From the NCBI GenBank assembly GCA_963733095.1, contig CAVTBV010000001.1, positions 157,951-221,950 on the forward strand: a stretch of 64,000 nt of DNA. The letters are read 5' to 3'. The position numbers were made by a program, and so were the translations under genes. The DNA is from Candidatus Bathyarchaeota archaeon. Its GTDB lineage: Archaea; Thermoproteota; Bathyarchaeia; Bathyarchaeales; Bathycorpusculaceae. Positions within the stretch are counted from its first letter, which is position 1. Every line of letters starts with the position of its first letter. Shown piece by piece: positions 24,850 through 57,831 of the stretch. The notes under the pieces were generated by a model that saw only the letters and a program-made list of their open reading frames with translations, was not told the DNA's origin and did no database searches.

Positions 24850-24851
24850 AA

Positions 24852-26116: not shown

Positions 26117-26696
26117 AGAGTCAATCACAATTAGCGATGTAATTGAGTATCTTTTCTGTCCTCGCTTCACCTATTTTATTCATTGTTTGGGAATACCTCA
26201 ACGTGAGGGGCGATTAATTAAAGTGCAGAAGGGCAGAGCACTTCATAAAAGTAAAGAGAAAACAAACCTTGGATATCTGAGGAAACGATACCGAGTAACG
26301 GATAAACTCATTGGGATTTATCTTTGCTCAAAGAAACACCGGATTAGAGGTAGTATGGATGAGGTGCTTTTTTTTGATGATGGTTCAGCGGCGCCATTAG
26401 ACTATAAATTTGCTAAATACAGTAATCACGTTTTTAATACTCATAAATACCAATCTGCGTTGTATGGATTAATGATAGCGGAACATTTCAATCGTCCCGT
26501 GCATAGAGGTTATCTGTGTTATTGCCGTAGCGGAAACAAGATTGTGGAGATACCATTAAATGAGAAACTGTTTCAGCAAGCAGGGGACATAATAAAGAAC
26601 ATATTTTTTATTATTCAAAGGGAAGAGTTTCCCGAAGTAACGGGAAATAAGAAACGATGCGTTGATTGCTGCTACAGACGAATCTGTCCACATTGA
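26097..26696 (+). CDS. cas4: CRISPR-associated exonuclease Cas4
   Basis: YLFCPR, G..DE..PLDYK, QSALY, C-terminal CVDCCYRRIC Fe-S motif. Confidence 0.95.
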   Translation: MASCFSEESITISDVIEYLFCPRFTYFIHCLGIPQREGRLIKVQKGRALHKSKEKTNLGYLRKRYRVTDKLIGIYLCSKKHRIRGSMDEVLFFDDGSAAPLDYKFAKYSNHVFNTHKYQSALYGLMIAEHFNRPVHRGYLCYCRSGNKIVEIPLNEKLFQQAGDIIKNIFFIIQREEFPEVTGNKKRCVDCCYRRICPH

Positions 26697-26738
26697 TGCA
26701 AAATGTTTTAAGCAATATTTGCTGTTATTCAGTGCATT
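26697..26738 (+). promoter_or_regulatory. Possible internal TATA promoter for cas8b-cas7-cas5-cas3
   Basis: TTTTAAG about 30 nt upstream of the cas8b ATG, in the only sizeable gap in the cas operon. Confidence 0.4.
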
Positions 26739-28640: not shown

Positions 28641-29550
28641 AATAGTATCTAACAGATCTGAAATAGTTTTTCTCTATGACGTTAAGGATAGTAATCCTAA
28701 TGGGGATCCTTTGGATGAGAATAAGCCGCGCATAGACGAAGAGAGCATGTTAAATCTCGTTACGGATGTTCGATTAAAAAGAACAGTTCGCGATTATCTG
28801 TATGACTTCCGTAACGAAGAGGTATTCATTTTAGGCGTGAAAAAAGATGACGGTACACTAAAGACTAAAGAAGAACGCATGACTGATCTGAAAATTGAAT
28901 CGGCTAACGATCTGACCAATAAATGTATCGATATACGGTTATTTGGAGCGACAGCTGCAGTTAAAAAGAATACTATTATTTTCACAGGGCCTGTCCAGTT
29001 TAAGATAGGGCGATCTTTGCATAAAGTGCAGCTAAAATTCATTAAGGGTACGACAGTTTATCCATCAGATAAAGGTAAAGATCAAGGTACTTTTACTGAG
29101 ATGTATGTTCTTCCGTATAGTCTCATAGGTTTCTATGGGGTAGTTAACGAGAACGCTGCTAAACACACTAAGCTTACAAATAGTGACGTTGACCTGTTGA
29201 TGGATGCCCTTTGGAACGGAACTAAAAATTTGATTAGTCGTTCTAAAGTTGGTCAGGTGCCTAGGCTTCTCTTGAAAATAAACTACAAAGAAAAAAACTA
29301 TCACATAGGCGATCTTAACGCTTTACTCGTACTCAAATCGGAAATTAGAGATGAAGAAATTAGAGACATCGACGATTACGTTCTAAATGTGACTCAGTTA
29401 CTTGACAAACTACGTGCTAATGCCGACAAAATAAGGGATATAGATCTGATGCTTGATGAACGGTTAACATTCAAACGCGAAAGTGACCAAATTGATCTGA
29501 CAAAAGAGCTTGTTAAACAAGGCTTAACAGTGAATCAGCTTGATCTCTAA
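28630..29550 (+). CDS. cas7b: Type I-B Cas7 (Csh2)
   Basis: NPNGDPLDENKPRID, VTDVRLKRTVRDY, DIRLFG, TGPVQF, SRSKVGQVPR. Confidence 0.96.
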   Translation: MMSEIVSNRSEIVFLYDVKDSNPNGDPLDENKPRIDEESMLNLVTDVRLKRTVRDYLYDFRNEEVFILGVKKDDGTLKTKEERMTDLKIESANDLTNKCIDIRLFGATAAVKKNTIIFTGPVQFKIGRSLHKVQLKFIKGTTVYPSDKGKDQGTFTEMYVLPYSLIGFYGVVNENAAKHTKLTNSDVDLLMDALWNGTKNLISRSKVGQVPRLLLKINYKEKNYHIGDLNALLVLKSEIRDEEIRDIDDYVLNVTQLLDKLRANADKIRDIDLMLDERLTFKRESDQIDLTKELVKQGLTVNQLDL

Positions 29551-29559
29551 TTGTGATGT

Positions 29560-30270
29560 ATGATGGATAAGGCTCTTGTCTTTGACCTTTGGGGCGACTA
29601 CGCCCACTTTAGGAAACATTATACCACAACAAGTCCCCTTACTTTTTCTATACCACCCAGAACAACATTATGTGGGCTCTTAGCTGCAATTATTGGTTTA
29701 GATAAAACAGAGTATCTTCGTTATTTTTCCGATAAAGATGCTTCAGTAGCCGTGCAATTACTAAGTGAAGTGAAAAAGATTACATTTGCTGAAAATCTTA
29801 TCGATACAAAAAAGGCGGGAAAAATGATGAACCAGATAAAACAGCGGACCCAGATACGCTTTGAGTTTCTAAAAAATCCGAAATACAGGATTTTTGTCTA
29901 TCATCAAGATGAATCCATTTATCGGAAACTCAAGGAAATGTTGGAAGCTCATAAAACAGTTTACACGCCCTGTTTAGGATTAAGTGAATTATTAGCTAAT
30001 TTCAATTACGTGGATGAGTACAATGCGGAAACAGTTGAAGCACAATCTGAAATTGAGATTTTAACCGCTTTGCCTAAAAAGAACATGATAGAGCTAATTT
30101 TCCAAGATGAGTATGAGTATTTATCAGAGACTATGCCCGGGAACATGCTCCCAGATAGAACCATTACTGAGTATGAACAGGTGATTTTTGAAAGAAAAAC
30201 TAGACCTGTAAAAGCAAGGGTAAATCAGTTCATCCGACTTGAAACCAATGAAGCCATCACTTTCCTTTAA
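29560..30270 (+). CDS. cas5b: Type I-B Cas5
   Basis: GDYAHFRK..SPLTFSIPPRT, YTPCLGLSE. Confidence 0.95.
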   Translation: MMDKALVFDLWGDYAHFRKHYTTTSPLTFSIPPRTTLCGLLAAIIGLDKTEYLRYFSDKDASVAVQLLSEVKKITFAENLIDTKKAGKMMNQIKQRTQIRFEFLKNPKYRIFVYHQDESIYRKLKEMLEAHKTVYTPCLGLSELLANFNYVDEYNAETVEAQSEIEILTALPKKNMIELIFQDEYEYLSETMPGNMLPDRTITEYEQVIFERKTRPVKARVNQFIRLETNEAITFL

Positions 30271-32650
30271 TCTACTAGCTCGTCCAGATAAACAACTTCG
30301 AGACCATCTTCAAAGAGTTTCAGAATTATGTTGTAAACTGTGTATGGAACCTAAACTCAATCTTGAATCTATTGATCTTACGCAAGATAAACTTGCAAAA
30401 ACCCTTGAAATGGTTGGTTGGTGCCATGATTTTGGGAAAACAACAACTTTTTTTCAGGAATATATCCATGAAACAGATGAACAAAAGAAAAGAAAATTAA
30501 AAAACAGGAAAGAAACTCATCATAGTCTTATTTCTGCGGTGTTCACATATTATGTCTTAAAAAATCAGTATTACCTATCTGATTCGCCCCTCGATGAAGT
30601 CATGCCGCTCATAGGCTATTTAGTAGTGAAAAGACATCATGGGAATCTAAAAAATATACGAGAAGAAATTAGCGACCTCCTCCAAGATAGTGACAAACAA
30701 GATATTTTGAAAAAGCAGCTTGATTCTATTACTGTTGAAACTGTGACGGAACTCTATAAAAATGTATTTTCTGAGCAGATATTTATCACGTTCAAAGAAG
30801 ACTTGGATTCAATATTGGAGCAGATGAAACGAAGCCGAAGAATCTTGTGGAAATTCTTGAAAACAGGTAATTTGTTTCCAGCCATTTTAACTAGTTTTTG
30901 TTATTCAATTTTGCTGCAAGCAGACAAAGAGCATGCTTCAGGCATCACTGTAAAAAGGCATGAACCAATTCCTGATAACATCGTCGACACATATCGGCGC
31001 CTAAAAGGGTTCAATAAATCAACCACGAAAATTAACAAAATAAGAAACAGTATATACCAAGAAACAACAAAATGTGTGGAATCACTTGATCTTGCCCAGA
31101 AGATTTATTCTCTTAATGCGCCCACTGGAACAGGTAAAACGTTAACGGGGTTAGCGTTTGCAAATAGACTTGCATCTAGGCTGCGGTGTGAGCAGAGATT
31201 TAATCCCCGAATTTTTTATTGTATTTCATTCATCAGCATCATTGATCAAAACTGTAAAGTATTTGAGAACGTGTTTGAAACAGTCACCGGAGAAAAGCCT
31301 ACCAATGACCTTCTTTTAAAGCATCATCACCTAGCGGGCACGTATTATTCTACGGATGAAAATGAGTTTGATCCCGAGAAGGGTCTTTTCCTTGTTGAAG
31401 GATGGAACTCTGAGGTTATAGTTACAACGTTTGTTCAGCTTTTTCATACTTTGTTTACAAACAGGAATCGGTCTCTACGGAAATATCATAGATTAGCTAA
31501 CTCGATTATAATTCTTGATGAGGTCCAGTCACTTCCACATAAATATTGGCTATTACTACGAGAATACCTGAAAACTTTATCCGCGCTGTTTAACACATAC
31601 TTTATTTTTATGACGGCTACGCAGCCACTTATTTTTCAGCCAGAAACTGAAATTAAAGAATTATGTGCAAACAATGATCAGTATTTCCGCCAGTTTGATC
31701 GGTTGGATCTTGTTCCTCGCCTTGAACCTGTAACTTTAGATGTTTTTATGGCGCAAGTAGTAGTTGATATTGAAGCTAATCCTGAAAAAAGTTTTCTGAT
31801 AATAATGAACACTATCAACAGTTCTCAACAGGTGTATCAGCACCTCCAGAAATGTATGGGTAAAGAGAACCTTGTTTACTTATCCACTAGGGTTTTTCCT
31901 AAGGAACGTCTTGATCGTATAACCCAGATATGTAAAGGCGGAAAAAGAAAGATTATTGTTAGTACGCAGCTTGTTGAAGCTGGTGTAGACCTTGACGTGG
32001 ATGTTGTGTATCGCGATTTTGGTACGTTAGACTCTGTAGTGCAAGCTTCTGGTCGATGTAATAGAAACTTTAACGAAAAACACGGTTTAGTTAAGCTTTT
32101 CAGGATAAACGATGAGCGACGCTTCTATTACAGCTATATTTATGGCTGTAACTCGATGCTTATCGATAAGACCCTGCAGGTTCTTGAGAAAAAAACGGTG
32201 ATACCTGAACAGGGGTTTAAAGAGGTGGTTGAGGAATATTACCAGTTAGTAAAGCACTCCATGAGCAATGATGAAGCAAATAAATTACTTGAAAATATTG
32301 CTCGACTTGAATTTGAGGAAATTCAACGTAACTTTAAACTTATAGCTGAAGACTACCCCAAGATCGATGTGTTCATTGAGTATGACGATGAAGCTGTTAA
32401 GATGTGGAAAGAGTTCGAGAGAATACAAGAAATTGCTGAACCGTCTGAAAAACGACGTGAATTCATGAAAATTAAGAAACAATTATGGGACTATACAATT
32501 TCGGTCCCGGAGAAGTTTAAAGAAACTGTAGGATACATGGATTCCATTGACATGGGTTATATCTCAAAAATGATAATTCAACAAACAGGAGTATATGACA
32601 AACAATTAGGGTTCCTGAAAGAACAAACCACAAATACGTTTTTTGTATAA
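30239..32650 (+). CDS. cas3: Cas3 HD nuclease-helicase
   Basis: HDFGK, RHHG, APTGTGKT, ILDEVQ, MTATQP, STQLVEAGVD, QASGRCNR. Confidence 0.97.
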   Translation: MKPMKPSLSFNLLARPDKQLRDHLQRVSELCCKLCMEPKLNLESIDLTQDKLAKTLEMVGWCHDFGKTTTFFQEYIHETDEQKKRKLKNRKETHHSLISAVFTYYVLKNQYYLSDSPLDEVMPLIGYLVVKRHHGNLKNIREEISDLLQDSDKQDILKKQLDSITVETVTELYKNVFSEQIFITFKEDLDSILEQMKRSRRILWKFLKTGNLFPAILTSFCYSILLQADKEHASGITVKRHEPIPDNIVDTYRRLKGFNKSTTKINKIRNSIYQETTKCVESLDLAQKIYSLNAPTGTGKTLTGLAFANRLASRLRCEQRFNPRIFYCISFISIIDQNCKVFENVFETVTGEKPTNDLLLKHHHLAGTYYSTDENEFDPEKGLFLVEGWNSEVIVTTFVQLFHTLFTNRNRSLRKYHRLANSIIILDEVQSLPHKYWLLLREYLKTLSALFNTYFIFMTATQPLIFQPETEIKELCANNDQYFRQFDRLDLVPRLEPVTLDVFMAQVVVDIEANPEKSFLIIMNTINSSQQVYQHLQKCMGKENLVYLSTRVFPKERLDRITQICKGGKRKIIVSTQLVEAGVDLDVDVVYRDFGTLDSVVQASGRCNRNFNEKHGLVKLFRINDERRFYYSYIYGCNSMLIDKTLQVLEKKTVIPEQGFKEVVEEYYQLVKHSMSNDEANKLLENIARLEFEEIQRNFKLIAEDYPKIDVFIEYDDEAVKMWKEFERIQEIAEPSEKRREFMKIKKQLWDYTISVPEKFKETVGYMDSIDMGYISKMIIQQTGVYDKQLGFLKEQTTNTFFV

Positions 32651-32759
32651 TATGGCACCTGTTTATAAGAGATTCAATAAAAAAAGGTGGTGAAAAATAT
32701 GACTCTTAAACAACTCCAAAAAAGTCTTAAAACATCAAAAGAAGCCGACAAAACGTGCT
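32651..32759 (+). promoter_or_regulatory. CRISPR leader
   Basis: A-rich non-coding segment with a TTTATAAG TATA-like box between cas3 and repeat 1; repeats end in ATTGAAAC on the + strand. Confidence 0.75.
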
Positions 32760-34984
32760 GTCGGAGAATGAAATCCATTAAAACAAGGATTGAAACTTGG
32801 CTGCTGTTTGATTTAGAATTGTGCTAAAGTCGGAGAATGAAATCCATTAAAACAAGGATTGAAACACTACAGCATCGTCGATATAGATTCAACAGGCTTG
32901 CAAGCAGGTCGGAGAATGAAATCCATTAAAACAAGGATTGAAACTATAATCCTTAATTGTTGATTCTAACATACCTAAAAGTCGGAGAATGAAATCCATT
33001 AAAACAAGGATTGAAACCAGGTTACTTCTAAGGTGTCGCCTGCATCCCAATTGCAGGTCGGAGAATGAAATCCATTAAAACAAGGATTGAAACACTATTC
33101 ATAGCGCAAATTCGGGTATAACTCCTGCTTTTGGTTCAGTCGGAGAATGAAATCCATTAAAACAAGGATTGAAACAAAATTAATGGGTGAAGAATGGACT
33201 GCTGAAGACGAAGGTCGGAGAATGAAATCCATTAAAACAAGGATTGAAACTTCGGGCATTGGGTTCCAACAGAGTTAATCCAGCAAATCGTCGGAGAATG
33301 AAATCCATTAAAACAAGGATTGAAACAACAGCGGCGTAATCCACAAAATATTAACTCAACTCGAGTCGGAGAATGAAATCCATTAAAACAAGGATTGAAA
33401 CTGTCAGTGGCAGGCGACAGAGGATTCTTTGATTTAGCATTGGGGTCGGAGAATGAAATGTCGGAGAATGAAATCCATTAAAACAAGGATTGAAACTAGC
33501 TGACACAGAAGACAAAGCAGAAGAATACAAAGACTGTCGGAGAATGAAATCCATTAAAACAAGGATTGAAACGACGCCGACGCATACCGCATAAGCCTCG
33601 CGCAACTTGGTCGGAGAATGAAATCCATTAAAACAAGGATTGAAACATTCAGAAAGCCAAAGACGGCGACCTCACAGAGGAAGAGTCGGAGAATGAAATC
33701 CATTAAAACAAGGATTGAAACTCAAATAAGCAAAGACGCCTGGAATGCACTGCATAAGTCGGAGAATGAAATCCATTAAAACAAGGATTGAAACTAGGTG
33801 CTTGTGTTGCTTTAGGCTTCGATGGCTTCAGCGAGTCGGAGAATGAAATCCATTAAAACAAGGATTGAAACTCAATGTTCTATTGGACTGCAAGCTTATT
33901 TGAGCAGGGGTCGGAGAATGAAATCCATTAAAACAAGGATTGAAACTGAGTAAAGGTACAAGTTGGATTTGTGCAGATTGTAGTCGGAGAATGAAATCCA
34001 TTAAAACAAGGATTGAAACAAGTAACCATCGTAATGTGTAAGAGTTGATGTTAGTCGGAGAATGAAATCCATTAAAACAAGGATTGAAACCAAATTGACT
34101 GTCTTTGCCTTCGACGCGGCTGAACTCGGTCGGAGAATGAAATCCATTAAAACAAGGATTGAAACCCCAATTAAAATCTTGAGTAGGAACAGTAACATCA
34201 TATTGTCGGAGAATGAAATCCATTAAAACAAGGATTGAAACTAAATGCTCTATCCTTAACTAAAAGTTGGTGCAATTAGGTCGGAGAATGAAATCCATTA
34301 AAACAAGGATTGAAACATCAGAGAACAATCCGGTGAGAGCAAAAAAAACATTGTCGGAGAATGAAATCCATTAAAACAAGGATTGAAACAATACTGTCTC
34401 GGACACTATAGGTTAGTAAGGGTTAAGTCGGAGAATGAAATCCATTAAAACAAGGATTGAAACTTCCACCAGAACCAAAAATGCAAATCTGCAGGGAACT
34501 GTTTAGTGTCGGAGAATGAAATCCATTAAAACAAGGATTGAAACCCAATTCAAAGTTGATTATGACTTAGAAAGGCGAAAGTCGGAGAATGAAATCCATT
34601 AAAACAAGGATTGAAACACTATTTCCTCATTATCTTCAGTGGCATTCAGAAAGGTCGGAGAATGAAATCCATTAAAACAAGGATTGAAACTCTTTCTTCG
34701 ACCAACAGTTAACCATCAATACTATTTGGTCGGAGAATGAAATCCATTAAAACAAGGATTGAAACGTGGTTGTTGACCGCGCTGACCTCGCTTTAGTTGG
34801 AAGTCGGAGAATGAAATCCATTAAAACAAGGATTGAAACAAAATGCCTGTTTTTGGGTTGCCTTCTGACTACTCGTCGGAGAATGAAATCCATTAAAACA
34901 AGGATTGAAACGCTATACTTGAATGCCATGACCTAGTTGAAAAAGGAGTCGGAGAATGAAATCCATTAAAACAAGGATTGAAAC
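32760..34984 (+). CRISPR. CRISPR array: 30 full repeats GTCGGAGAATGAAATCCATTAAAACAAGGATTGAAAC (37 nt), 29 spacers of about 32-45 nt, plus one 15-nt partial repeat
   Basis: Counted by eye: repeats start at 32760, 32829, 32908 ... 34875, 34948; internal hairpin AATCC/GGATT. Confidence 0.99.
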
Positions 34985-37983: not shown

Positions 37984-39531
37984 ATGACGGATGTTGTGTT
38001 TGTCTTTGAAGTTCACCAACCCCACAGGCTAAGAAGGAATCTGTTTTGGGAAGGCAAAGTTTTCAGGCGCCTATCCAAGGCTGAACTTTTCGATTATTAC
38101 TTTGATAACGAGGTTGACCGAGAAATCTTTAAGCGTGCCGCACGCAAATGCTATTTTCCATCAAACCAGATCCTCCTTGATGTAATAGAACGCCACAAAC
38201 ACGACCGTAAGCAGGCAAAGTTTTCCTTCAGCGTTTCCGGTGTTTTTCTTGAACAATGCGAAATGTTCGACAAAGACCTCCTTGAAAGCTTCAAGCAACT
38301 CTCAGCCACAGGACGAGTGGAATTTCTAGACCAAACCTACTATCACTCTATCGCCAGTCTCTACCCTGAAAAAGAAGAATTTGTAGCTCAAGTCGCCATG
38401 CATAAGCAAACCATCAAGGATTTGCTTGGGACTACACCACGTATTTTTGAGAATACAGAGTTGCTTTACAACAACACAATCGCTAAAACTGTTGAGGATA
38501 TGGGTTACAAGGGCATTTACACGGAGGGTGTGGAGAAGATTCTGGGCGAAAAATCACCCAACTTTATCTACACTCCTAAAGGCACAAAAAAAATCCGGAT
38601 TTTCCTGCGGAATTACAAGTTGACTGACGACATCGGCTTTAGATTTTCCGCTAGATGGTGGCCTGAGTGGCCCCTGACCGCAGACAAGTATGCGCGGTGG
38701 CTAGCCGAAACCAAGGGTGAAGTCATCAATATATTCCCAGACTACGAAACCTTCGGCGAGCACCACTGGCCAGAAACAGGCATCCACAGTTTCCTCCAAC
38801 ACCTCCCAGATGAAATATTGAAGTATGACCATTTGCAGATGGCTACGCCCTCTGAAGTGATAGAAAAGCATGCTTCGGCAGGAGAAATTGATGTTCCAGA
38901 AGCTGGAGGAACGGTTTCTTGGGCTGACATTCAGCGAGACCAGTCAGGGTGGCTGGGAAACGTTATGCAGTGGGCTTACTACACGACCCTGCGCAGGTTA
39001 GAACCGCTGATAAAGGAGGCGGACGACGGTGAATTTCTCAGGTTGTGGCGTGACTTCCAAACAAGCGACCACCTCTACTACATGTTCACTGCAGGAGGCG
39101 GACCAGGGGAAGTTCATTCTTACTTTAGCCCATATGAGTCGCCGATGGATGCTTTTGTAGCTGCTCAAACTTTGCTTAACGATTTTGAGGCAAGGCTCAG
39201 GCTTTCACTCCTTACCGCTAACGAGCCTTTCTTGTTCTATACGGGCATTGGGAAGGAATGCTATACGGGGTTGATGGCTTGGAGTCTTAAGGGTTTCATT
39301 AAAGCCCTCAAAGAAGTAGATGTCAGAGCTATAGAGTTCCATGTAGGCAAAGGCGATTTTGAGAGTTGGGCAGGATACTCGTTAAAAGACAAGAAATTGG
39401 CATCCAAAATCAAAGCCCTCAAAGCTTCAGTGGAAGTAGGGGATAAACTTAGAAAAGCAATGGTTGAAGCTGCAACAAAACGTTACCTTGCCCAAAGCGA
39501 GGCGTTGCAGGATGCAACCCAGCTTTTCTAA
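37984..39531 (+). CDS. Glycoside hydrolase family 57 (alpha-amylase type) with C-terminal DUF5752 domain
   Basis: FEVHQP, QTYYHS, ENTEL, DYETFGEH, TSDHLYYM; tail PFLFYTG..IEFH..GDFESW..D..LA. Confidence 0.92.
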   Translation: MTDVVFVFEVHQPHRLRRNLFWEGKVFRRLSKAELFDYYFDNEVDREIFKRAARKCYFPSNQILLDVIERHKHDRKQAKFSFSVSGVFLEQCEMFDKDLLESFKQLSATGRVEFLDQTYYHSIASLYPEKEEFVAQVAMHKQTIKDLLGTTPRIFENTELLYNNTIAKTVEDMGYKGIYTEGVEKILGEKSPNFIYTPKGTKKIRIFLRNYKLTDDIGFRFSARWWPEWPLTADKYARWLAETKGEVINIFPDYETFGEHHWPETGIHSFLQHLPDEILKYDHLQMATPSEVIEKHASAGEIDVPEAGGTVSWADIQRDQSGWLGNVMQWAYYTTLRRLEPLIKEADDGEFLRLWRDFQTSDHLYYMFTAGGGPGEVHSYFSPYESPMDAFVAAQTLLNDFEARLRLSLLTANEPFLFYTGIGKECYTGLMAWSLKGFIKALKEVDVRAIEFHVGKGDFESWAGYSLKDKKLASKIKALKASVEVGDKLRKAMVEAATKRYLAQSEALQDATQLF

Positions 39532-39857: not shown

Positions 39858-40487
39858 ATGCGTGTCATCATTTTTTCTTGGGAGTATCCACCAAGGGTGG
39901 TAGGTCAACTCTCTGGGTATGTTAGTGCCCTGTCAAGTCAGTTGGCTAAAAGCAAAGTGGATGTCCATGTTGTAACTTATGATGACTCTGCAACAGGTCA
40001 AACGCAGGAATCCAGCGGCGTAAAAACTTTCAGAGTGGCTAACCCTGTTCGAACACACATTGGCGTCTTAACATGGGTTCTCACTTTAAACCAAGAGGTT
40101 GAACGGGCGGCAACCAGTATTTACTATGAATCTCACAAGCAAGTTGACCTCATAGACGTTTTCGACTGGCATTTTATCCCCGCCGCAGTCACGTTAAAGA
40201 ACGGTTTAGGCATACCCTTTGTCTACTCGGTTGAAAGCCTAGAAGACCATCGTTCCCCAAACGCTGACGCATCCTACAACATGGCTATCAAAAGCATCGA
40301 GTGGCTCGGCTTTTATGAAGCAGCAAGAGTTAACGTAAAATCCGAATGGATGAAAGAAGAAGCAATCCGCATATACCAAGTTCCAAGAGAAAAAATAGCC
40401 GTCATATCAACAGACCCCAATTCTTTAGGAAAAAACGTCCTAAAATCATATAGCAAGGTGGCGGAGACAAAGAAGAATGAAAGATAA
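39858..40487 (+). CDS. Stand-alone GT4 N-terminal domain protein
   Basis: FSWEYPPRVVG; aligns with the first half of the next gene and ends before the nucleotide-sugar-binding domain. Confidence 0.8.
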   Translation: MRVIIFSWEYPPRVVGQLSGYVSALSSQLAKSKVDVHVVTYDDSATGQTQESSGVKTFRVANPVRTHIGVLTWVLTLNQEVERAATSIYYESHKQVDLIDVFDWHFIPAAVTLKNGLGIPFVYSVESLEDHRSPNADASYNMAIKSIEWLGFYEAARVNVKSEWMKEEAIRIYQVPREKIAVISTDPNSLGKNVLKSYSKVAETKKNER

Positions 40488-41679
40488 ACTAACCGTAATG
40501 ATGCTAAGTTGGGAGTATCCGCCAAGAGTAATCGGAGGCATCTCACCCCACATCTACTTCCTATCCAAACATTTAGCTAAACAAGACGTAAAAGTTTACG
40601 TAGTAACTTGCGATTTCCCGGGTGCACCCGCTCATGAAGTGATAGATGACGTAGAAGTTTACCGTATAGATTCCTACAAAAACCCTGCACCTGACTTCGC
40701 CACATGGGTTTACCTCATGAACATGAACATGCAGCGGGAGACAGCAGCGATAACCAGAAAAATCGCCGATAAAATCGACGTTTTCCACGCCCACGACTGG
40801 CTTGTGGCAAACGCAGGAATCGGTCTAAAGCATGTTTTTCGAAAACCTCTCTTGGTAACTATGCATTCAACCGAGATGGGCAGGCGAGACGGGTTGCATA
40901 CCACAACCGAAAAAATGATTCATGAAACCGAAGCCTGGCTCACCTACGAGGCTTGGAAGGTAATTTGCTGCAGTGACTACATGATTTCCCACGTAAAATA
41001 CGTCTTCGGATTGCCAAGCGACAAGCTAGTTATGGTTCCAAACGGAGTAAACACTCACAATTATGACGTTAACGAAGATTTGCGGGATTTCAGAAGCAAG
41101 TTTGCTTTGCCCGAAGAAAAAATCGTACTCTACGTCGGACGCTTAGTTTACGAAAAAGGCATCCACGTATTAATTAACGCGGTGCCAAAAATCCTCAGTA
41201 AAGCTAACGCTAAATTCATTATCGTCGGCAGCGGTTACATGAAAGAGCAGCTCTTAAACATTGTACGTAGCATGGGGTTGGAACATAAAGTGCTCTTTCA
41301 AGGTTTCCTAGATGAACCAACACTGCTAAAGCTTCAAAGAATTGCGGATGTGTCTGTTGTGCCCTCGCTGTTTGAACCCTTCGGTATAGTTGCACTTGAA
41401 GCGATGGCTGCCAAAAGCCCCGTCGTTGCATCTGACACCGGCGGATTATCAGAAATAATCGAACATGACGTTACAGGCGTCAAGGTATACCCCAACAACC
41501 CCGACTCTTTGGCTTGGGGCATATCAAAAGTGTTGCTAGACGAAAACTACGCCCGAAGCCTCAAAGACAACGCGTACAGGCGGGTTCTAGAAAAATATGA
41601 TTGGGAAAAAATCGCTCAGCAGACCAAGCGCATTTACGAGGGGGTTTTAGGCGAGTACTCAAAGAGTTTCTGGGCTTAA
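40477..41679 (+). CDS. GT4 glycosyltransferase (glycogen/alpha-glucan synthesis context)
   Basis: SWEYPP, HAHDW, VGRLVYEKG, PSLFEPFGIVALEAMA. Confidence 0.93.
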   Translation: MKDKLTVMMLSWEYPPRVIGGISPHIYFLSKHLAKQDVKVYVVTCDFPGAPAHEVIDDVEVYRIDSYKNPAPDFATWVYLMNMNMQRETAAITRKIADKIDVFHAHDWLVANAGIGLKHVFRKPLLVTMHSTEMGRRDGLHTTTEKMIHETEAWLTYEAWKVICCSDYMISHVKYVFGLPSDKLVMVPNGVNTHNYDVNEDLRDFRSKFALPEEKIVLYVGRLVYEKGIHVLINAVPKILSKANAKFIIVGSGYMKEQLLNIVRSMGLEHKVLFQGFLDEPTLLKLQRIADVSVVPSLFEPFGIVALEAMAAKSPVVASDTGGLSEIIEHDVTGVKVYPNNPDSLAWGISKVLLDENYARSLKDNAYRRVLEKYDWEKIAQQTKRIYEGVLGEYSKSFWA

Positions 41680-49305: not shown

Positions 49306-50547
49306 TTAGATTTTCTTGGTCTGAACAGCGTTTTCCAGAGCAACGACGCCTGGCAGTTTTTTACCCATCAAAAACTCTATGAGTGCTCCGCCTGCGGTGC
49401 TTATGTACCCGATTTGTTTCGTTAAGCCGTATTCCTGGATGGCTGCAATGGTGTTTCCGCCGCCTGCTAGCGAGAAGGCTTTGCTGTTTGCGATTGCTTC
49501 GAAGACTTTTTTGGTGCCATAGTTGAATTCTTTGTTCTCATATACGCCCATGGGTCCGCTGACTACGATGGATTTGGCTGCTGAGATGATTTTTACGTAG
49601 GCTTCAACGGTTTTGGCGCCTATGTCAACAGCTGAGTACTCAGTGGGCAGTCCACTCACGTGGAGTTCTTTGCGTTTCCCGTCAACATCCAATGCAACGT
49701 CAACTGGAACCATCACTTTATCGCCATATTGGTCCTCAAGTGCTTTAATGCCTGGAATCAAGCCAGTTAGTTCCTTCTTTGCTAAATAAGTCATGTTTGC
49801 TTTGCCTAAGTCAACGCCTTTAGCTGCCAAAAACAATTGCCCTGTAACGCCGCCCGTAAGTACATAGTCAGCTATGCCGTTGCCTAAAACGTACTTGCTG
49901 ATTTCAAGGCTGTCGTCGGCTTTTGCTCCACCCATAACGTAAACGGATGGCTTTTCAGGTTTTTCCAGAGCTTTGCTGAGGGATTTGAGTTCGCGTTCCA
50001 TTATGCGTCCAGCTGCAGATGGCAACACTGCAGTGAAGCCAACCATGCTGACGTGTCCGCGGTGTGCTGCGGCAAAAGCGTCGTTTACGAAGAGGTCTGC
50101 GAGTGGTGCAAGGTTTTGCACGAGCTCGGTTTTGCTGGCTTCTTCGGGTGTGGTGCTCTTTGTTTCTTTATCCCAACTGCGTACGTTCTCTAAAACCAGG
50201 ATTTCTCCGCTTTTGAGGTTTTTGATGGCGGTTTTGGCTTTGTCGCCGAAGAGGTCTTCGACGTATTTTACTGGGCATTTGAGAATTTTCCCGAGTATTT
50301 CGGCGTGTTCTTTTAGAGTGGTGTAGTCTGGGTCTCCTTTTCTGCCTTGATGCGCAAGAACGACTGTTTTGGCGCCTTTTTCTGCGAGTTCTGTGAGGGT
50401 TGTTTCAGCGTGGGCTCGAATTCGTACGTCACTTGTGACTTTTTTGGTGGCTGGGTCGATTTCTGAGTTAAAGTCAACTCTGACAAGAACCACTTTATCT
50501 TTTACTTGAAAATCGTCTAGTGTTTTGTACTTTGCCATGTTATTCAC
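49306..50547 (-). CDS. pgk: Phosphoglycerate kinase
   Basis: LVRVDFN, AHQGR, LENVR, VNDAFAAAHR, GGAK, GPMGVYE, STAGGA. Confidence 0.97.
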   Translation of the reverse strand: MNNMAKYKTLDDFQVKDKVVLVRVDFNSEIDPATKKVTSDVRIRAHAETTLTELAEKGAKTVVLAHQGRKGDPDYTTLKEHAEILGKILKCPVKYVEDLFGDKAKTAIKNLKSGEILVLENVRSWDKETKSTTPEEASKTELVQNLAPLADLFVNDAFAAAHRGHVSMVGFTAVLPSAAGRIMERELKSLSKALEKPEKPSVYVMGGAKADDSLEISKYVLGNGIADYVLTGGVTGQLFLAAKGVDLGKANMTYLAKKELTGLIPGIKALEDQYGDKVMVPVDVALDVDGKRKELHVSGLPTEYSAVDIGAKTVEAYVKIISAAKSIVVSGPMGVYENKEFNYGTKKVFEAIANSKAFSLAGGGNTIAAIQEYGLTKQIGYISTAGGALIEFLMGKKLPGVVALENAVQTKKI

Positions 50548-50603: not shown

Positions 50604-51626
50604 TTAGAGGTTGGCTTTTTTGCCAATCATTTCAATGAAGTCGACCATACGGTTGCTAAAGCCCCATTCGTTGTCGTACCACGCAAAGACCTTCACGAAG
50701 TTGCTCTTTTCACCTAACACCATTGTCAATTGGGCATCGAAAACGCTGCTGTAAGTACTGTGAAGAACGTCTGTGCTGACGATTGGATCTTCCGTATACT
50801 GTAGTATACCTTTAAGTTCGCCTTCTGCGGCTTTCTTCATGGCTTCGTTGATTTCATCTTTTGTGACATCTTTACCTAGGATAGCAGTTAAGTCAACGAT
50901 TGATACGTCGGGGGTTGGGACACGTAGTGAATAGCCGTTCATTTTGCCTGCACAGTTTGGCAAGACTAAGCCGATTGCTTTTGCTGCGCCTGTGCTGGTT
51001 GGGATAATGTTGATTGCTGCGGCGCGTGCGCGTCTTGGATCTTTGTGAACAACATCTTGGATACGTTGGTCGTTTGTGTAGCTGTGACATGTTGTCATGA
51101 GAGCTTTTTCGAGTCCAAAGTTATCTGAGAGGACTTTGCTGATGGGAGCTAGACAGTTGGTTGTGCAGCTGGCGTTTGATAGGATGTTGTGTTTTTCGTT
51201 GTCATAGCTCTTGTCATTGACGCCTAAAACGAAGGTTGCATCTGGGTCTGTTGCTGGAGCGCTGATTAAGACTTTTTTGGCTCCTGCAGCGATGTGTTTG
51301 GATGCGCCTTCACGGTTTGTGAATAAGCCTGTGGATTCGACGGCTAAGTAAACTCCTAGGTCTTTCCATGGGAGTTGCGTTGGGTCTCTTACGCTCAGAC
51401 ACTTGAGTTCTTTTCCGTTAACAACTAGGTCGTTGCCTTTTACTTCCACGGTTCCTGGAAAACGTCCATGAACGGAGTCGTACTTGAGCAAGTTAGCGTT
51501 AGTTTTTGCGTCTGCCAAGTCGTTGATGGCTACAAAATCAATATTTGCGTTCTTTTCAATGGCTGCTCTGTAGAGAAGTCTTCCGATTCTTCCAAAACCA
51601 TTAATTCCAACTTTAATATTCGCCAT
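50604..51626 (-). CDS. gap: Class I (bacterial-type) glyceraldehyde-3-phosphate dehydrogenase
   Basis: [44 protein letters not shown]. Confidence 0.97.
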
Positions 51627-51776
51627 TAACAATCACCTATATTTGTATGTTTGTACAATCAACTCTGACTTTATTAATTTTCCGACCAAAATGCCGAGGC
51701 TTACCAAGCGTAAACTCACATGCTTAAAAAAGTTTTGCTCTATGACATCTTTAATGTATTATTGTTTAAATACTGA

Positions 51777-53033: not shown

Positions 53034-54284
53034 TTACCGTTTAGCGATTGTTTCGTAGAGTTCCACGGTTTTTTGTGCAATCTTGTTCCAGGTGAATTCT
53101 GCTAAGACGCGTTTTCGACCGTTTTTGCCTAGCATTTTCTGTTTTTCTGGGTTTTCCAATGCGCTGATTACTCCCCACGCGATGTCGGAGGGGTTGTTTG
53201 GATCTATGTGGTAGCCGCATTGTTCTTCGCCGCAGCAAATTACAATTTCGCGCATTCCGCTGACTCCGGCTGCCCCGACAACGACTGGTTTCTCCATAGC
53301 CATGGCTTCGATTGCTACTATTCCGAAGGGTTCGTAGTGGCTTGGAAACACTGCTATGTCGCAGGCGGCGTAGTGTTGGATGCGTTCTTCTTCTGGAATG
53401 AAGTCATAACAGAATTTGACGTATTCATCTAGTTTTGTCATTTTGGTGAGGTTGGTTAGGTACTCTTGTAGGTCGCCGACGCCTACGACAACTAGTTTTG
53501 CTTTAGGAATCTTGGAGAGGATGTGAGGCATCGCCATAATCAATTTGTCGACCCCTTTTACCATGACGAGGCGTCCTAAGAAAAGAATCATCAACTCGTC
53601 GTCTTTTATGCCGTATTTGGCCCTGATTTTCTGTATGTTTTCTTTAGAGATGTTTTGGGGATTGTATTTTTGGGGATCAACGCCATTGTAGCAAACTTGG
53701 ATTTTTTCTCTGGGAAAACCGAGTTGCACCAACTCGTCCTTCATGGCGTAGGAGACGGTGACAACCATGTCAGCCATCTTGCCCCCCCTCAACTCGATGT
53801 TGCTGACCACACTCGAGCCATTCCCAAGAGTCCTGCCTTTTTCCGTAGAGTGAACATGGAAAGCCAAAGGCAACCCAGTCTCCCGTTTAACTGTGATTCC
53901 CCCCATCGCTGAGAGCCAGTCATGAGCCACAACAACGTCGTACTTCATGCCTTCTTTCTTGATGAGTTCATTAACCAATTTTGCTGCTGACAAGTAATTG
54001 TAAACCATCAGTTTACCGAACAGGTGAATCCCTCGACCCCATTTTCGTATGTCCTCTGCAATCACGTCGGGCAATGAATCGGACACGTCGATGTGGAGAG
54101 GACGATGGATTTCTATTCCACGCCAAATCTCACGAGTCGGCAACGAACCTTCATCGTCATTCATCGTGAAAACTGTCACATCATGGTCGTTTAACACGAA
54201 TTTGCGTGTGATCTCAGCAGCGTAAGTGCCAAGTCCACCCACAATTTTAGGTGGATACTCATAAACAAAAACGGCAATCTTCAT
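53034..54284 (-). CDS. GT4 glycosyltransferase
   Basis: EYPPKIVGGLG, AHDW, HSTE, LGRLVMVKG, PSHYEPFGIVAIEAMA. Confidence 0.93.
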   Translation of the reverse strand: MKIAVFVYEYPPKIVGGLGTYAAEITRKFVLNDHDVTVFTMNDDEGSLPTREIWRGIEIHRPLHIDVSDSLPDVIAEDIRKWGRGIHLFGKLMVYNYLSAAKLVNELIKKEGMKYDVVVAHDWLSAMGGITVKRETGLPLAFHVHSTEKGRTLGNGSSVVSNIELRGGKMADMVVTVSYAMKDELVQLGFPREKIQVCYNGVDPQKYNPQNISKENIQKIRAKYGIKDDELMILFLGRLVMVKGVDKLIMAMPHILSKIPKAKLVVVGVGDLQEYLTNLTKMTKLDEYVKFCYDFIPEEERIQHYAACDIAVFPSHYEPFGIVAIEAMAMEKPVVVGAAGVSGMREIVICCGEEQCGYHIDPNNPSDIAWGVISALENPEKQKMLGKNGRKRVLAEFTWNKIAQKTVELYETIAKR

Positions 54285-54441: not shown

Positions 54442-55035
54442 ATGAGTTTGTCACCAATTAAACAGGAAATACTGGAAACCATGCTTCTAAACGATAAACC
54501 AATGAAAGCTATGGAAATCGCCAAGGAGACAAAAAAAGAGTTCCAGCCAGTCAATATGCACCTCTTAGGACTCATCAAGATGGGGCACGTTAGTTTACCT
54601 GAGAAAGGAATATACAAAATTACCGAAAAAGGCAAAAAAGTTCTCGGCATACCCGAAATCACAAAAGAAAAAGCCGCCGCAATTATAGCTTATGCTCCAC
54701 ATGATAAGGCTTTCAACTTCTATGCTACTTTGGGAAAGCCCCTGAACATTCATGCCCATACCCTACGGGATTTTGCAAACAAAATCGACAAAGCAGAATT
54801 AGCCTCAATAGAATTCCATATGCAGCGCAACGATTTTGAAGCCTGGTTTAAGGGACTAGGCGACGAAGAATTAGCAAAAAAAACTGCATTGCTGAAGAAA
54901 AGAAGCCTTACCAGCCAAGACCTGCGTGAGCGTCTTCACGAAATGGTTGAACAACGGTACCTTGAATTGGCAAAACTATCCGGTCAACCCATCCCGCCAG
55001 AAGACGAACATGCACACACCCATACTCACCCATAG
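54442..55035 (+). CDS. Winged-helix transcription factor fused to DUF5752, with His-rich tail
   Basis: AMEIAKE..HLLGLIKMGHV..YKITEKG; AFNFY..IEFH..DFEAW..GDEELA; tail EHAHTHTHP. Confidence 0.82.
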   Translation: MSLSPIKQEILETMLLNDKPMKAMEIAKETKKEFQPVNMHLLGLIKMGHVSLPEKGIYKITEKGKKVLGIPEITKEKAAAIIAYAPHDKAFNFYATLGKPLNIHAHTLRDFANKIDKAELASIEFHMQRNDFEAWFKGLGDEELAKKTALLKKRSLTSQDLRERLHEMVEQRYLELAKLSGQPIPPEDEHAHTHTHP

Positions 55036-55103
55036 TGGGCTACCTTCCTATTTTCTAATCGATATGCAATATTAAAAGAAAAGTTTGCCCAAAAAATGGG
55101 CGT

Positions 55104-56087
55104 TTAGGTTATTTGGCTGTAGATTGGGTGGTCTCTGAACTTTAGGTTGGTCGTTGACCACTCTAAGGTGCCGCTTGGCAGTCTTGTGCAAATCGATTGG
55201 ACAATTGCCCCGCCAGCAGTGAACCGTACGCCGTCGAGCATTTCACCTTTAGTTACGCCTGAAGCCGCAAAAATCATTTCGTTGCCCTTTGCCAGCTCGT
55301 CTTCAGTGTAGGTTTTCTCGATGTCAACGCCCGATGCTTTTAATCTATCCATTCTTTTAGCGTCATCTTTTTTGTCCTTCCATACCTTAACCAGCATGGT
55401 TCCGCCCAAGCACTTCACTGCGACTGCAGCAATTGTTGCTTCGGCTCCTGCACCTGCACCGACGAGCAAGTCAACGCCTGAGTCAGGTAGACATGTAACG
55501 ATTGAGCCTGCGATGTCGCCGTCAGCTATAAGGATGATTCTTACGCCCATCTTTCTTAGTTTAGCGAGCAATTCATTGTGTCTTTCACGTTCAAGCATAA
55601 TCACTGTAAAGTTTGCTAAAGGTCGATTCTTTAGTTTAGCTATGGTCTGCACGATCTCCTCGATGGACATCTCGAGGTTGATTTTTCCCTTGGATTTGCC
55701 GTCGGTTGCAACCTTGAAGTAGTAGCCGTCGTCCGGCAGAACTTTTAGGCATCCAGCAGGAGCACAACACAATGCTGAGATGGCGTCTTTTTTTCCTTTG
55801 GATGTGGCGGTTGTGCCGTCAACTTGGTCGATTATGAATTCTACTTTGGGTCCGTTTCCTGTGCCGACTTTTTCCATGTAGCTGAAGGCGGGTGCTTGGT
55901 CTTTGGGTCCTTCGCAGCAGATGACTTCTCCATCGACTTCGGTTTGGTTTAGAACTGCTCTTGAAAAGTCCAGGGCGGTTTGGTCTACTTTGTCTGGGTC
56001 TCCTTTACCTATATGTAATGCGGCGCCTACTGCTCCAGCAGTAGTGATCCTTGTCAAGGAAGGAGAGAGCGATCTTAGTGATGTCAT
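55104..56087 (-). CDS. glpX: Class II fructose-1,6-bisphosphatase
   Basis: EG.KD.AP, DQVDGT, LERERH, LIADGDI, GAGAEA, FAASGVTKGEMLDGV. Confidence 0.9.
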   Translation of the reverse strand: MTSLRSLSPSLTRITTAGAVGAALHIGKGDPDKVDQTALDFSRAVLNQTEVDGEVICCEGPKDQAPAFSYMEKVGTGNGPKVEFIIDQVDGTTATSKGKKDAISALCCAPAGCLKVLPDDGYYFKVATDGKSKGKINLEMSIEEIVQTIAKLKNRPLANFTVIMLERERHNELLAKLRKMGVRIILIADGDIAGSIVTCLPDSGVDLLVGAGAGAEATIAAVAVKCLGGTMLVKVWKDKKDDAKRMDRLKASGVDIEKTYTEDELAKGNEMIFAASGVTKGEMLDGVRFTAGGAIVQSICTRLPSGTLEWSTTNLKFRDHPIYSQIT

Positions 56088-57016
56088 TTCTTTAGCTCCT
56101 TTTTGCCTTTACATTCGTTTAGCCATAGCTCGGTGAACTCTTGGTAGTTCTGGGCAACCTTTTCAACCGCTTCTTCTTTGGTGGACTTGCCTGCTTTATA
56201 GTCTGCCAATGGATTCCAGAAAATGGTTCTGCCGACAGCAAACCCAATTACGCCCGGAATTTTTGCGCCGACCTTCAGCCATTCCTGAACCTTCTCTTTA
56301 GATTCCCCGCGTCCCAGAGTGATGACGCCTACTTTTCTGCCGCCACTTTGAGCTTGCTTAACCACGGCTCGGGCGGATTCCGGTTTATCCACACCTTCTA
56401 GTTTCCAAATCACTGGTTCTACGCCTGCAGCTTGAATCTCTTTGATACTGTCCACCATTAGCTTAGGGCGCAGTTCTTGGTCATACTTCTCTTTTGAACC
56501 GCCCAGCTTTGCAAGTTGCGCCGTTGTTGAGGGAACTATTAGTTCAAAGAGGAAGGGACGATTTTTCTGAGTTAAATAATCGCTGAGTATCTTTAGCCGA
56601 CCAAGCTGCCTCTTGTTCATCTCTACGTCGCCTTCAGGATTATACCTTACCAGCACCTTCACGAAGGTCGGGTCGAACTCTTCGATGTGTTTAGCAAAAT
56701 CTTCGCCATAGTCAAAGTCAAATTCTTCTTGACCAGATTTCTCCACGGGCATGGCAAACATTAAGTCGTCTTTTTTTGCTTCACGCAAAACGTCGGTGCC
56801 GAACTCTTCATCCACCAGTAAGCCGGCTATATCTTTGGGAACCTTTTTCTTTGTGGCTAGTCGGAAGCCTTCAAAAATTATTTTCTTGTAGTCTTCGATC
56901 TGCCGTTTTTCTTCGGGGGTTGGTTGACGACCTTTTATGCCGAACATTTTTTCTAAGAAAGACGCTCGATGGTCAAATGCTAAAATAAGTAGTTCTTTTT
57001 GCGACCAATCAATCAC
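56084..57016 (-). CDS. DUF2090 family, LacD-like class I aldolase fold
   Basis: LAFDHR, PVEKSG, KVLVRYNP, WKLEG (candidate Schiff-base Lys), LGRG, GFAVGRTIF. Confidence 0.85.
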   Translation of the reverse strand: MIDWSQKELLILAFDHRASFLEKMFGIKGRQPTPEEKRQIEDYKKIIFEGFRLATKKKVPKDIAGLLVDEEFGTDVLREAKKDDLMFAMPVEKSGQEEFDFDYGEDFAKHIEEFDPTFVKVLVRYNPEGDVEMNKRQLGRLKILSDYLTQKNRPFLFELIVPSTTAQLAKLGGSKEKYDQELRPKLMVDSIKEIQAAGVEPVIWKLEGVDKPESARAVVKQAQSGGRKVGVITLGRGESKEKVQEWLKVGAKIPGVIGFAVGRTIFWNPLADYKAGKSTKEEAVEKVAQNYQEFTELWLNECKGKKELKK

Positions 57017-57330
57017 TTAAATCACCGTGCGGTGTATTTTGTGTTTGTTCCTAATAAAACATTATGGGTTTTGCCGGCGAAAATTGATTTATACAATTGA
57101 GTTTTAATATGTTCTTGAGGGGGTTTGTTTTCTTTTTAATTGTTGTGGCTTAGCATCCCCTATACTACGGCAACTACTATTAGTTTACGTAAAAAGCTGT
57201 GTTCTCCCTAAGTTTGTTTTGGGTTGCAGGCTGGTTGTGGAGGCAACCCCAAGCAGAACAGAAACAATGCCTCATGCGGGGGAAACCATGAAATAACTAA
57301 AGCACCCATAACTGGTCCTGAGGCGCGAGT

Positions 57331-57831
57331 ATGAGCGAAACGCGAACAGTCACGGTAAAACTGCCCGAAGACGTCTACCATGAAATGGCATTGCGTATCC
57401 CAGAAGGTGACCGAAGTACCTTTATTCGCGAAGCCATAACAGAAAAGCTCCAAAAAACACCCAAACCAGACACCCTCCTATCCCTCCAGGAACGAATGGG
57501 CAAAATCGAGCAAGAATTCGGGCAAATTAGAAAATATCTCGCTGACCTCGAAATCCTAACCTTCCAACATGGAAAAATTGACCCTTACGCCTACTGCATA
57601 GACGAAGTAGACCGCAAAATCATGGAGTACCTAATGCACTACAAATCCGCAACCACACCTGAACTAGCAGATTACATTAAAACAAACCGCTGGCTCATCC
57701 TGAATCGGCTGCAGAAAATCCAGAAAAACAGCAAAAAACAAATCGGCAAACCCATAATCGAATACTACGCAGGCGAACGTTCAGGCAAGAAGAAGGCTTG
57801 GTGGATAGACCAAGAACTAATTCAGGAATAA
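57331..57831 (+). CDS. Ribbon-helix-helix plus winged-helix regulator
   Basis: TVTVKLPEDVY..RSTFIREAI (RHH), coiled coil, DRKIMEYL..ATTPELA (wHTH). Confidence 0.8.
   Translation: MSETRTVTVKLPEDVYHEMALRIPEGDRSTFIREAITEKLQKTPKPDTLLSLQERMGKIEQEFGQIRKYLADLEILTFQHGKIDPYAYCIDEVDRKIMEYLMHYKSATTPELADYIKTNRWLILNRLQKIQKNSKKQIGKPIIEYYAGERSGKKKAWWIDQELIQE

Follow-up and report, generated by a model that had tools for sequence, protein, structure and literature searches.

A stand-alone DUF2090 protein encoded with glpX in a Bathyarchaeia archaeon is probably a fructose-1,6-bisphosphate aldolase of a hitherto unrecognised type

A 64,000-nucleotide (nt) stretch of the genome of Candidatus Bathyarchaeota archaeon (GenBank assembly GCA_963733095.1, contig CAVTBV010000001.1, positions 157,951 to 221,950), referred to here as the window, encodes a stand-alone protein of the Pfam family DUF2090 immediately upstream of glpX, the gene of a class II fructose-1,6-bisphosphatase (FBPase). 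Comparison with known enzymes makes it most likely that this DUF2090 protein represents a type of fructose-1,6-bisphosphate (FBP) aldolase that has so far gone unrecognised. The reading preferred here, to which a probability of roughly 0.7 is given on the basis of sequence comparison and a structural model, is that the protein acts as an FBP aldolase, probably also on sedoheptulose-1,7-bisphosphate (SBP), and that its product would be hydrolysed by the presumably co-translated GlpX towards hexose phosphate. The protein is placed in a distinct and widespread DUF2090 subfamily of Schiff-base (class I) aldolases that depend on dihydroxyacetone phosphate (DHAP). The fold and the chemistry are known; the family and its role are unrecognised. 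The two genes and the signals that surround them are the following.

56084-57016, minus strand: gene of the DUF2090-type class I aldolase, 310 residues (open reading frame (ORF), translation and PF09863 match), proposed FBP/SBP aldolase
55104-56087, minus strand: glpX, class II FBPase, 327 residues (PF03320)
56084-56087, minus strand: ATGA junction, in which the aldolase stop codon TGA (56086-56084) lies over the glpX start codon ATG (56087-56085)
56096-56100, minus strand: AGGAG, Shine-Dalgarno-like and presumably functional as such, 8 nt 5' of the glpX ATG and within the end of the aldolase gene
57021-57026, minus strand: GGTGAT, Shine-Dalgarno-like and presumably functional as such, 4 nt 5' of the aldolase GTG
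57052-57059, minus strand: TTTTATTA, a possible archaeal TATA box picked out by eye, 36-43 nt 5' of the GTG
55087-55101, minus strand: terminator-like hairpin with a T-rich tail, directly 3' of the glpX stop codon

The overlap of the aldolase stop and the glpX start, on which the initial annotation of this locus was built, is read directly in the sequence, and the aldolase gene appears to be the first of a two-gene operon whose products are probably co-translated. Terminator-like sites number five in the region against a shuffle mean of 4.0, and the hairpin behind glpX is backed by its position alone. The aldolase ORF starts with the GTG at 57016-57014, immediately after an in-frame TAA. The public gene call (P0004), consisting of 287 residues, starts instead at Met24 and drops positions 56948-57016 of the minus strand, which cuts off the first strand of the fold and with it the AFDHR motif, including the near-invariant residues Asp15 and Arg17. 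Homologues begin at the GTG position and not at Met24, and the GGTGAT sequence in front of the GTG favours this start over the public one.

The identification of the DUF2090 protein as an aldolase relies on its fold and on the residues that line its active site. PF09863 (DUF2090) matches residues 6-300 with 135.3 bits (gathering cutoff 27), covering profile positions 34-308 of 310, and is the sole Pfam family reported at E ≤0.01. The canonical FBP aldolase families of Pfam (class I Glycolytic, class II F_bP_aldolase and FBP aldolase/phosphatase) give no match at this threshold, a result that is compatible with an equivalent function and leaves it open. An AlphaFold2 model built from a 65-sequence alignment (A1) displays a (beta/alpha)8 barrel of eight strand-helix units, with a predicted local distance difference test (pLDDT) value of 97.2 and a predicted template modelling (pTM) score of 0.93. 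When this model is compared with the Protein Data Bank (PDB) by Foldseek, all of the top matches are class I aldolases. The LacD tagatose-1,6-bisphosphate aldolases rank first (E ~6e-15, template modelling (TM) score 0.69-0.74, ~20% identity), among them entry 5f2g, which according to its title was solved with FBP. Sulfosugar-1-phosphate aldolases (8tnf, YihT) occupy the second rank, and animal and plant class I FBP aldolases the third (TM ~0.65). A search of the ESM Atlas returned DUF2090 and LacD clusters only.

LacD of Streptococcus and Staphylococcus (PDB 3mhf, 5f2g) is a DHAP-dependent enzyme with the same barrel, in which the 'FDxR' start, a lysine in strand 4, a glutamate in strand 5 and a lysine in strand 6 align with the window protein. 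The four LacD-like motifs listed in the initial annotation are all found in the translation, namely AFDHR at residues 13-17, KVLVRY at 120-125, WKLEG at 204-208 and GFAVGR at 258-263. In the profile alignment, K120, E158 and K205 fall on LacD positions 125, 163 and 205, the last of which we take to be the imine-forming lysine. Conservation across 128 domains of the family is complete for K120 and E158 (128/128 each) and nearly so for K205 (124/128). Price et al. (PMC9007349) give Lys126 and Glu164 as catalytic residues of LacD, and these are equated with positions 125 and 163 through a one-residue offset between PDB chains in the alignment. The barrel fold, together with the aligned and conserved K120, E158 and K205, leads to the assignment of the protein as a class I DHAP-type aldolase with a predicted intact active site.

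The sulfosugar-1-phosphate aldolases (YihT, PDB 7ag1 and 1to3; the Paracoccus enzyme, 8tnf) share the fold of the window protein. Entry 8tnf, deposited as a 'DUF2090 domain-containing protein', gives the strongest sequence-profile match of any PDB entry (E 6.1e-13) but aligns with profile positions 107-274 only, and the resemblance of these enzymes to the window protein is partial and distant. Such aldolases are located in sulfoquinovose or sulfofucose gene clusters (PMC12421959), and no genes of either kind are present at the window locus.

The gene neighbourhood of the aldolase was compared across 80 loci, the best of at least 586 confirmed places in one species-level genome collection, found with a 15-sequence alignment (A2). 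The set consists of 16 archaeal and 64 bacterial loci and spans 17 phylum labels as well as unclassified rows. Neighbours were counted with a tblastn panel across all 80 loci, complemented by a GC3-aware ORF caller, which recovers no aldolase ORF in L080. A central sugar-phosphate gene lies within 8 kb of the aldolase gene in 38 of the 80 loci. The prevalence of glpX as the direct neighbour (14 of the 80 loci) differs between the domains of life, with 13 of the 16 archaeal loci and one of the 64 bacterial loci harbouring the pair. In L023 and the 11 loci of the Bathyarchaeia type glpX follows the aldolase gene, and in L011 and L076 it precedes it. The Bathyarchaeia junctions comprise a 4-nt overlap in L002-L005 and a gap of 1-6 nt in L006, L007, L009, L010 and L012, such that the genes overlap or nearly touch in nine of the ten readable Bathyarchaeia-type loci. 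The exception is L001, for which an earlier start was called, and L008 has no called aldolase ORF. Among the DPANN archaea, L011 has the order glpX-aldolase and L023, from the Aenigmatarchaeota, the order aldolase-glpX-pgk. The three genes of the latter (L023:3760-6867) overlap by 8 nt and 4 nt, with the 4-nt overlap between glpX and pgk, and constitute a compact gluconeogenic operon. In the bacterial locus L076, glpX precedes the aldolase gene and each half is 60% identical to a fusion protein, P0124, that joins the two. A 4-nt overlap is common by itself; the pairing is more than chance because it is conserved across loci, in three lineages and in differing gene orders.

The 80 loci connect the aldolase gene with a broader set of sugar-phosphate enzymes. 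Glucose-6-phosphate isomerase (PGI) is encoded in 15 of the 80 loci, in 13 of which (bacterial) its gene lies on the same strand at most 175 nt upstream. Further neighbours are 6-phosphogluconate dehydrogenase (6PGD, 10 loci), transaldolase (TAL, 9), glucose-6-phosphate dehydrogenase (G6PD, 8), transketolase (TKT, 8), ribulose-phosphate epimerase (RPE, 7) and 6-phosphogluconolactonase (6PGL, 7), and glycogen enzymes are found in 4-7 loci. A recurrent bacterial operon is arranged as TAL-PGI-DUF2090-6PGD-TKT-G6PD-6PGL-RPE, with L059, L056 and L065 as examples. In L027 (Micrarchaeota), the gene for 6-phosphofructokinase (PFK) follows directly downstream at a distance of 20 nt. A separate arrangement is present in the Actinomycetota, in which the aldolase gene lies directly upstream of purA, the gene of adenylosuccinate synthetase, in L048, L057 and L074 and beside purD in L069 and L078. 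The class II fba gene is located near purA in mycobacteria and corynebacteria, so that the DUF2090 gene beside purA could be an in-place replacement of class II fba.

Fusion proteins provide a second view of the metabolic context. The fusion set consists of 76 longer relatives that are 44-56% identical to the window protein, with the exception of P0346 (26%). Their second domains were taken from precomputed Pfam assignments and tallied for this analysis; in 60 of the 76 the partner is an enzyme of glycolysis, of the pentose-phosphate pathway or of glycogen metabolism, as listed below with the remaining partners.

Glucose-6-phosphate isomerase: 25 of 76
6-phosphofructokinase (PF00365): 16 of 76
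6-phosphogluconolactonase: 7 of 76
ROK kinase: 6 of 76
6-phosphogluconate dehydrogenase: 3 of 76
Ribulose-phosphate epimerase: 1 of 76
Transketolase: 1 of 76
GH77: 1 of 76
PEMT/Ste14-type methyltransferase: 5 of 76
PfkB kinase: 5 of 76
Peptidase M50: 1 of 76
No further domain: 5 of 76

A Pfam run on individual members identifies P0124 (622 residues) as GlpX plus DUF2090 and P0203 as PFK plus DUF2090. The GlpX half of the former scores above the glpX equivalog cutoff (317.8 against 259.3 bits), and a second GlpX-DUF2090 fusion, P0347, is 87% identical to P0124 and located on another contig, which brings this fusion to two among the 120 matches listed. Of the PfkB partners, that of P0265 passes the cutoff of the 1-PFK/hexose-kinase subfamily (237.8 against 216.4), and the remaining ones fall well short of the IolC cutoff. 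A tree of 128 domains, obtained by a quick search with SH-aLRT support only and one outgroup row, requires at least 18 changes of fusion label (two for PFK, three for PGI, two for 6PGD and one each for GlpX, ROK, 6PGL and PEMT), which indicates that the fusions arose many times. The partners include both an FBP-forming kinase and an FBP-consuming phosphatase, pointing to FBP as the metabolite common to them. The PEMT-type fusions P0305, P0306, P0311, P0314 and P0324, along with P0313 and P0318 as judged by their JGI names, form a tight clade. Several long forms were excluded from the count, namely L055 (645 residues), L060 (513 residues) and three of 379-411 residues; they contain no Pfam domain beyond DUF2090 and are probably the result of ORF over-extension in high-GC DNA.

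The names under which these proteins are deposited imply a different role, that of a 5-dehydro-2-deoxyphosphogluconate aldolase in myo-inositol catabolism. This role, the only one in print for DUF2090, would be consistent with membership in Pfam DUF2090 and with the proposal, made from fitness data (PMC9007349), that the DUF2090 domain fused to IolC is the aldolase of the inositol pathway. The window protein, however, scores 62.5 bits against NF047869, the model of the bifunctional IolC/aldolase, whose cutoff is 600. It is a single-domain protein without the N-terminal PfkB kinase, and is 26% identical to P0346, a true member of NF047869 (877.6 bits) whose branch in the tree is very long, at 2.42 changes per site. 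The two share D15, H16, R17, K44, E92, K120, E158, W204, K205 and G262-R263, while seven positions conserved in the subfamily of the window protein are changed in this one inositol-type sequence (K93Q, R124F, N126H, R183S, E207P, G208P and R236L). The four basic residues among them (K93, R124, R183 and R236), which the single inositol-type sequence lacks, might hold the second phosphate group of a bisphosphate substrate. The statement of the initial annotation that the window contains no iol genes holds, in that 60 further ORFs scanned with Pfam include neither a PfkB kinase nor any other inositol-catabolism family. Elsewhere, the tblastn panel detects PfkB in none of the 80 loci, and no iol genes are present among 61 immediate-neighbour ORFs scanned in the 42 loci that lack sugar-phosphate genes. 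A role of the window protein in inositol catabolism is thus regarded as very improbable.

LacD, as the nearest relative of known structure, raises the alternative of a broad ketohexose-1,6-bisphosphate aldolase that serves the catabolism of tagatose, galactitol or similar sugars and not central metabolism. Tagatose-1,6-bisphosphate aldolases are both the closest relatives of known structure and the top-scoring aldolase match in NCBIfam, and the kinase to which P0265 is fused belongs to a subfamily that also includes tagatose-6-phosphate kinases. The NCBIfam scores are nevertheless far below their cutoffs (NF009498, 36.7 against 184 bits; NF009065, 22 against 458; NF003180, 16.1 against 519), the identity to LacD is only ~20%, and LacD has an insert after the Schiff-base lysine that the window subfamily does not share. 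The genetic context of LacD is lactose and galactose catabolism, whereas that of the window subfamily is central metabolism. No lac or gat genes are seen among the annotated neighbours, and the proteins fused to the aldolase or encoded beside it are GlpX, PFK, PGI, ROK kinase and enzymes of the pentose-phosphate pathway, leaving this alternative improbable. A DHAP aldolase for another central intermediate is about equally improbable, whether it is specific for SBP with GlpX as the corresponding bisphosphatase, or produces 6-deoxy-5-ketofructose-1-phosphate for the aromatic amino acids of archaea. Class II FBPases of some organisms hydrolyse SBP too, the bacterial gene often lies within pentose-phosphate operons such as those of L059, L056 and L065, and the ADH synthase of M. 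jannaschii is a weak structural match (TM 0.53). Against these points, transaldolase is encoded in the same operons (9 of the 80 loci), so that a bypass through SBP is not needed there, and the PFK, ROK kinase and PGI fusions favour the hexose branch. Known FBP aldolases usually accept SBP, and the SBP alternative therefore largely overlaps with the assignment as an FBP aldolase.

The assignment as an FBP aldolase is weakened by several observations. LacD cleaves several hexose bisphosphates, and hence the fold does not fix the substrate; more generally, the function of the whole subfamily is predicted from comparison, and LacD-type enzymes can be promiscuous. The neighbours are housekeeping genes that offer no functional hint in 42 of the 80 loci. 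A membrane methyltransferase of the PEMT/Ste14 type is the partner in five to seven relatives, an association explained neither by an FBP aldolase nor by any other reading of the family, and in five others the partner is a PfkB kinase whose specificity is not assigned. In the tree, the inositol branch from which the subfamily is separated is represented by one inositol-type sequence, and the GlpX of the window scores 246.5 bits with TIGR00330, just under the equivalog cutoff of 259.3. Many metagenome-assembled genomes (MAGs) of peat Bathyarchaeia are reported to carry FBP aldolase genes of class I or class II (PMC11619403), and some Micrarchaeota are reported to carry class II fbaA (PMC12892359). 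Given the canonical aldolases of Bathyarchaeia MAGs, the DUF2090 enzyme may be a second aldolase and need not fill a gap.

The initial annotation had proposed that a stand-alone DUF2090 protein acts as an aldolase of FBP, or of a related ketose bisphosphate, that feeds GlpX, and this prediction gains support from the fold, the catalytic triad, the failed IolC test, the fusions and the gene adjacency. The main reaction is most likely the interconversion of DHAP and glyceraldehyde-3-phosphate with FBP, and a second one is probably that of DHAP and erythrose-4-phosphate with SBP. By analogy with LacD, Lys205 of the WKLEG motif would form the imine with DHAP, Glu158 would shuttle the proton, and Lys120 and Asp15 would assist. 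The overlapping stop and start codons would allow the aldolase and the class II FBPase to be made together. GlpX would then irreversibly remove the 1-phosphate and thereby pull triose phosphates, in the metabolism of which the nearby gap and pgk genes participate, towards fructose-6-phosphate, which would plausibly proceed to glycogen. In bacteria that harbour PFK, ROK kinase or PGI as a fused or adjacent partner, the same aldolase would run in the glycolytic direction.

In this arrangement the aldolase and GlpX would correspond, as two separate proteins, to the bifunctional FBP aldolase/phosphatase found in archaea and deep-branching bacteria, which was reportedly described by Say and Fuchs in 2010. 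The two systems would be alike in the net conversion of triose phosphates into fructose-6-phosphate and in their organisation as one co-expressed unit, which in P0124 and P0347 is also a single chain. They differ in that the bifunctional enzyme uses one shared, switching active site, whereas the pair consists of a class I barrel and a phosphatase of the GlpX type, two unrelated proteins for which no homology to the bifunctional enzyme was found. If the assignment is correct, DUF2090 and GlpX form a modular and rarely fused version of that enzyme, and archaea possess a second, independent route to an aldolase-plus-phosphatase unit.

The window GlpX matches PF03320 with 294 bits, and 35 columns are invariant in its alignment with 42 other GlpX proteins (43 sequences in all). 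The GlpX proteins of Bathyarchaeia are 35-40% identical to those of other lineages. A physical complex that channels FBP from the aldolase to GlpX, beyond mere co-expression, is conceivable in view of the single-chain GlpX-DUF2090 proteins, which represent two 90%-identity clusters on separate contigs, and of the gene junctions that overlap or nearly touch. Such a complex is nevertheless considered unlikely, as the fusion is rare (two among the 120 matches listed), the gene order varies between lineages, and the many fusions to other pathway enzymes suggest co-regulation and not a specific interface. Complex prediction for the two proteins gives a score of 0.00 and a mark of 0.32, which is neither for nor against binding.

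The family to which the window protein belongs is large. A near-length search yields 7937 matches at the level of 90%-identity clusters, with PF09863 as the only domain in all 120 among the matches listed; 440 representatives remain at 50% identity and E ≤1e-30, in addition to the at least 586 confirmed genome places from which the loci were drawn. The initial annotation described DUF2090 as mostly known from IolC proteins, a description that fits the literature (PMC9007349) but not sequence space, where stand-alone proteins of about 300 residues dominate. None of the current library names is FBP aldolase: Pfam, NCBIfam and the ESM Atlas provide DUF2090, an aldolase domain of the inositol pathway, or nothing. 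The JGI names among the matches listed are always 'myo-inositol catabolism protein IolC' or '5-dehydro-2-deoxygluconokinase' despite the absence of a kinase domain, which looks like a systematic misannotation inherited from the IolC fusion. Full-text literature on DUF2090 or PF09863, to which subscription journals and closed supplements did not contribute, consists of the GapMind work and one Pseudomonas transcriptome listing, and these and further literature searches found no published proposal of an FBP aldolase function for DUF2090.

The FBP aldolase step is required by every glycolytic or gluconeogenic cell, and to our knowledge only a handful of enzyme families are known to carry it out. 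The chances lean slightly towards stand-alone DUF2090 proteins being an unrecognised family of FBP aldolases, and maybe the working glycolytic or gluconeogenic aldolase of many uncultured lineages. These lineages may include Bathyarchaeia, Micrarchaeota, Aenigmatarchaeota and candidate-phyla bacteria, as well as many Planctomycetota, Actinomycetota, Acidobacteriota and Bdellovibrionota. Should this be the case, the inositol-kinase names cause pathway reconstructions to miss an aldolase or to overlook a second one; the metabolic reconstructions of many uncultured groups would change, and the IolC and 5-dehydro-2-deoxygluconokinase names would be corrected.

The surroundings of the operon contain further genes of carbohydrate metabolism and two ORFs that flank the pair.

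49306-50547, minus strand: pgk, phosphoglycerate kinase (PF00162, 387.8 bits)
50604-51632, minus strand: gap, type I (bacterial-type) glyceraldehyde-3-phosphate dehydrogenase (TIGR01534, 451.4 bits, cutoff 367.2), a putative supplier of glyceraldehyde-3-phosphate
53034-54284, minus strand: glycosyltransferase of family GT4, whose best NCBIfam match, the glycogen synthase model glgA_Coryne (191.9 bits), is below the cutoff of 302.4
54442-55035, plus strand: 197-residue ORF, convergent on glpX, with an Mrr_N-like match and a weak DUF5752 match, in place in nine Bathyarchaeia loci
57331-57831, plus strand: 166-residue ORF without a Pfam or NCBIfam match, oriented divergently from the aldolase gene, in place in ten Bathyarchaeia loci

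The gap and pgk genes, placed at about 4 kb by the initial annotation, are on the strand of the operon and start 3.5 kb beyond glpX. The distance between gap and the aldolase gene is equal in L001, L002, L003 and L006. The glyceraldehyde-3-phosphate dehydrogenase of this Bathyarchaeia archaeon is of the bacterial type I and not of the archaeal type. In 10 of the 11 loci of the Bathyarchaeia type the GT4 gene is found downstream of the aldolase gene at a distance of 1.6-1.9 kb. The GT4 product is a possible sink for hexose phosphate. An 8-kb block consisting of the divergent 166-residue ORF, the aldolase gene, glpX, the convergent 197-residue ORF, the GT4 gene, a nucleotidyltransferase gene and a DUF2095 gene is syntenic in 9-10 Bathyarchaeia loci. 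The DUF5752 domain, weakly matched by the convergent ORF, also forms the C-terminus of the GH57 protein encoded at 37984-39531.

The window as a whole carries glycogen-type genes (GH57 and three GT4/GT5 genes) along with archaeal markers, and the proteins most similar to those it encodes bear Bathyarchaeota or Bathyarchaeia names. At 39858-41679 of the plus strand, a 209-residue ORF that contains only the N-terminal part of a GT4 enzyme overlaps the start of a full-length GT4 gene of the glycogen-synthase-like type (400 residues), and may be a remnant or a split duplicate. A homologue of the TrmB family of sugar-sensing regulators, consisting of the N-terminal domain only and scoring well below the equivalog cutoffs, is encoded at 4043-4795 of the plus strand; TrmB relatives regulate glycolysis and gluconeogenesis in other archaea. 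The window also harbours a type I-B CRISPR-Cas system at 24193-34984 (Cas6b, Cas1, Cas4, Cas8b/TM1802, Cas7, Cas5 and Cas3), whose array comprises 32 or more repeats that belong to the CRISPR-DR7 family.

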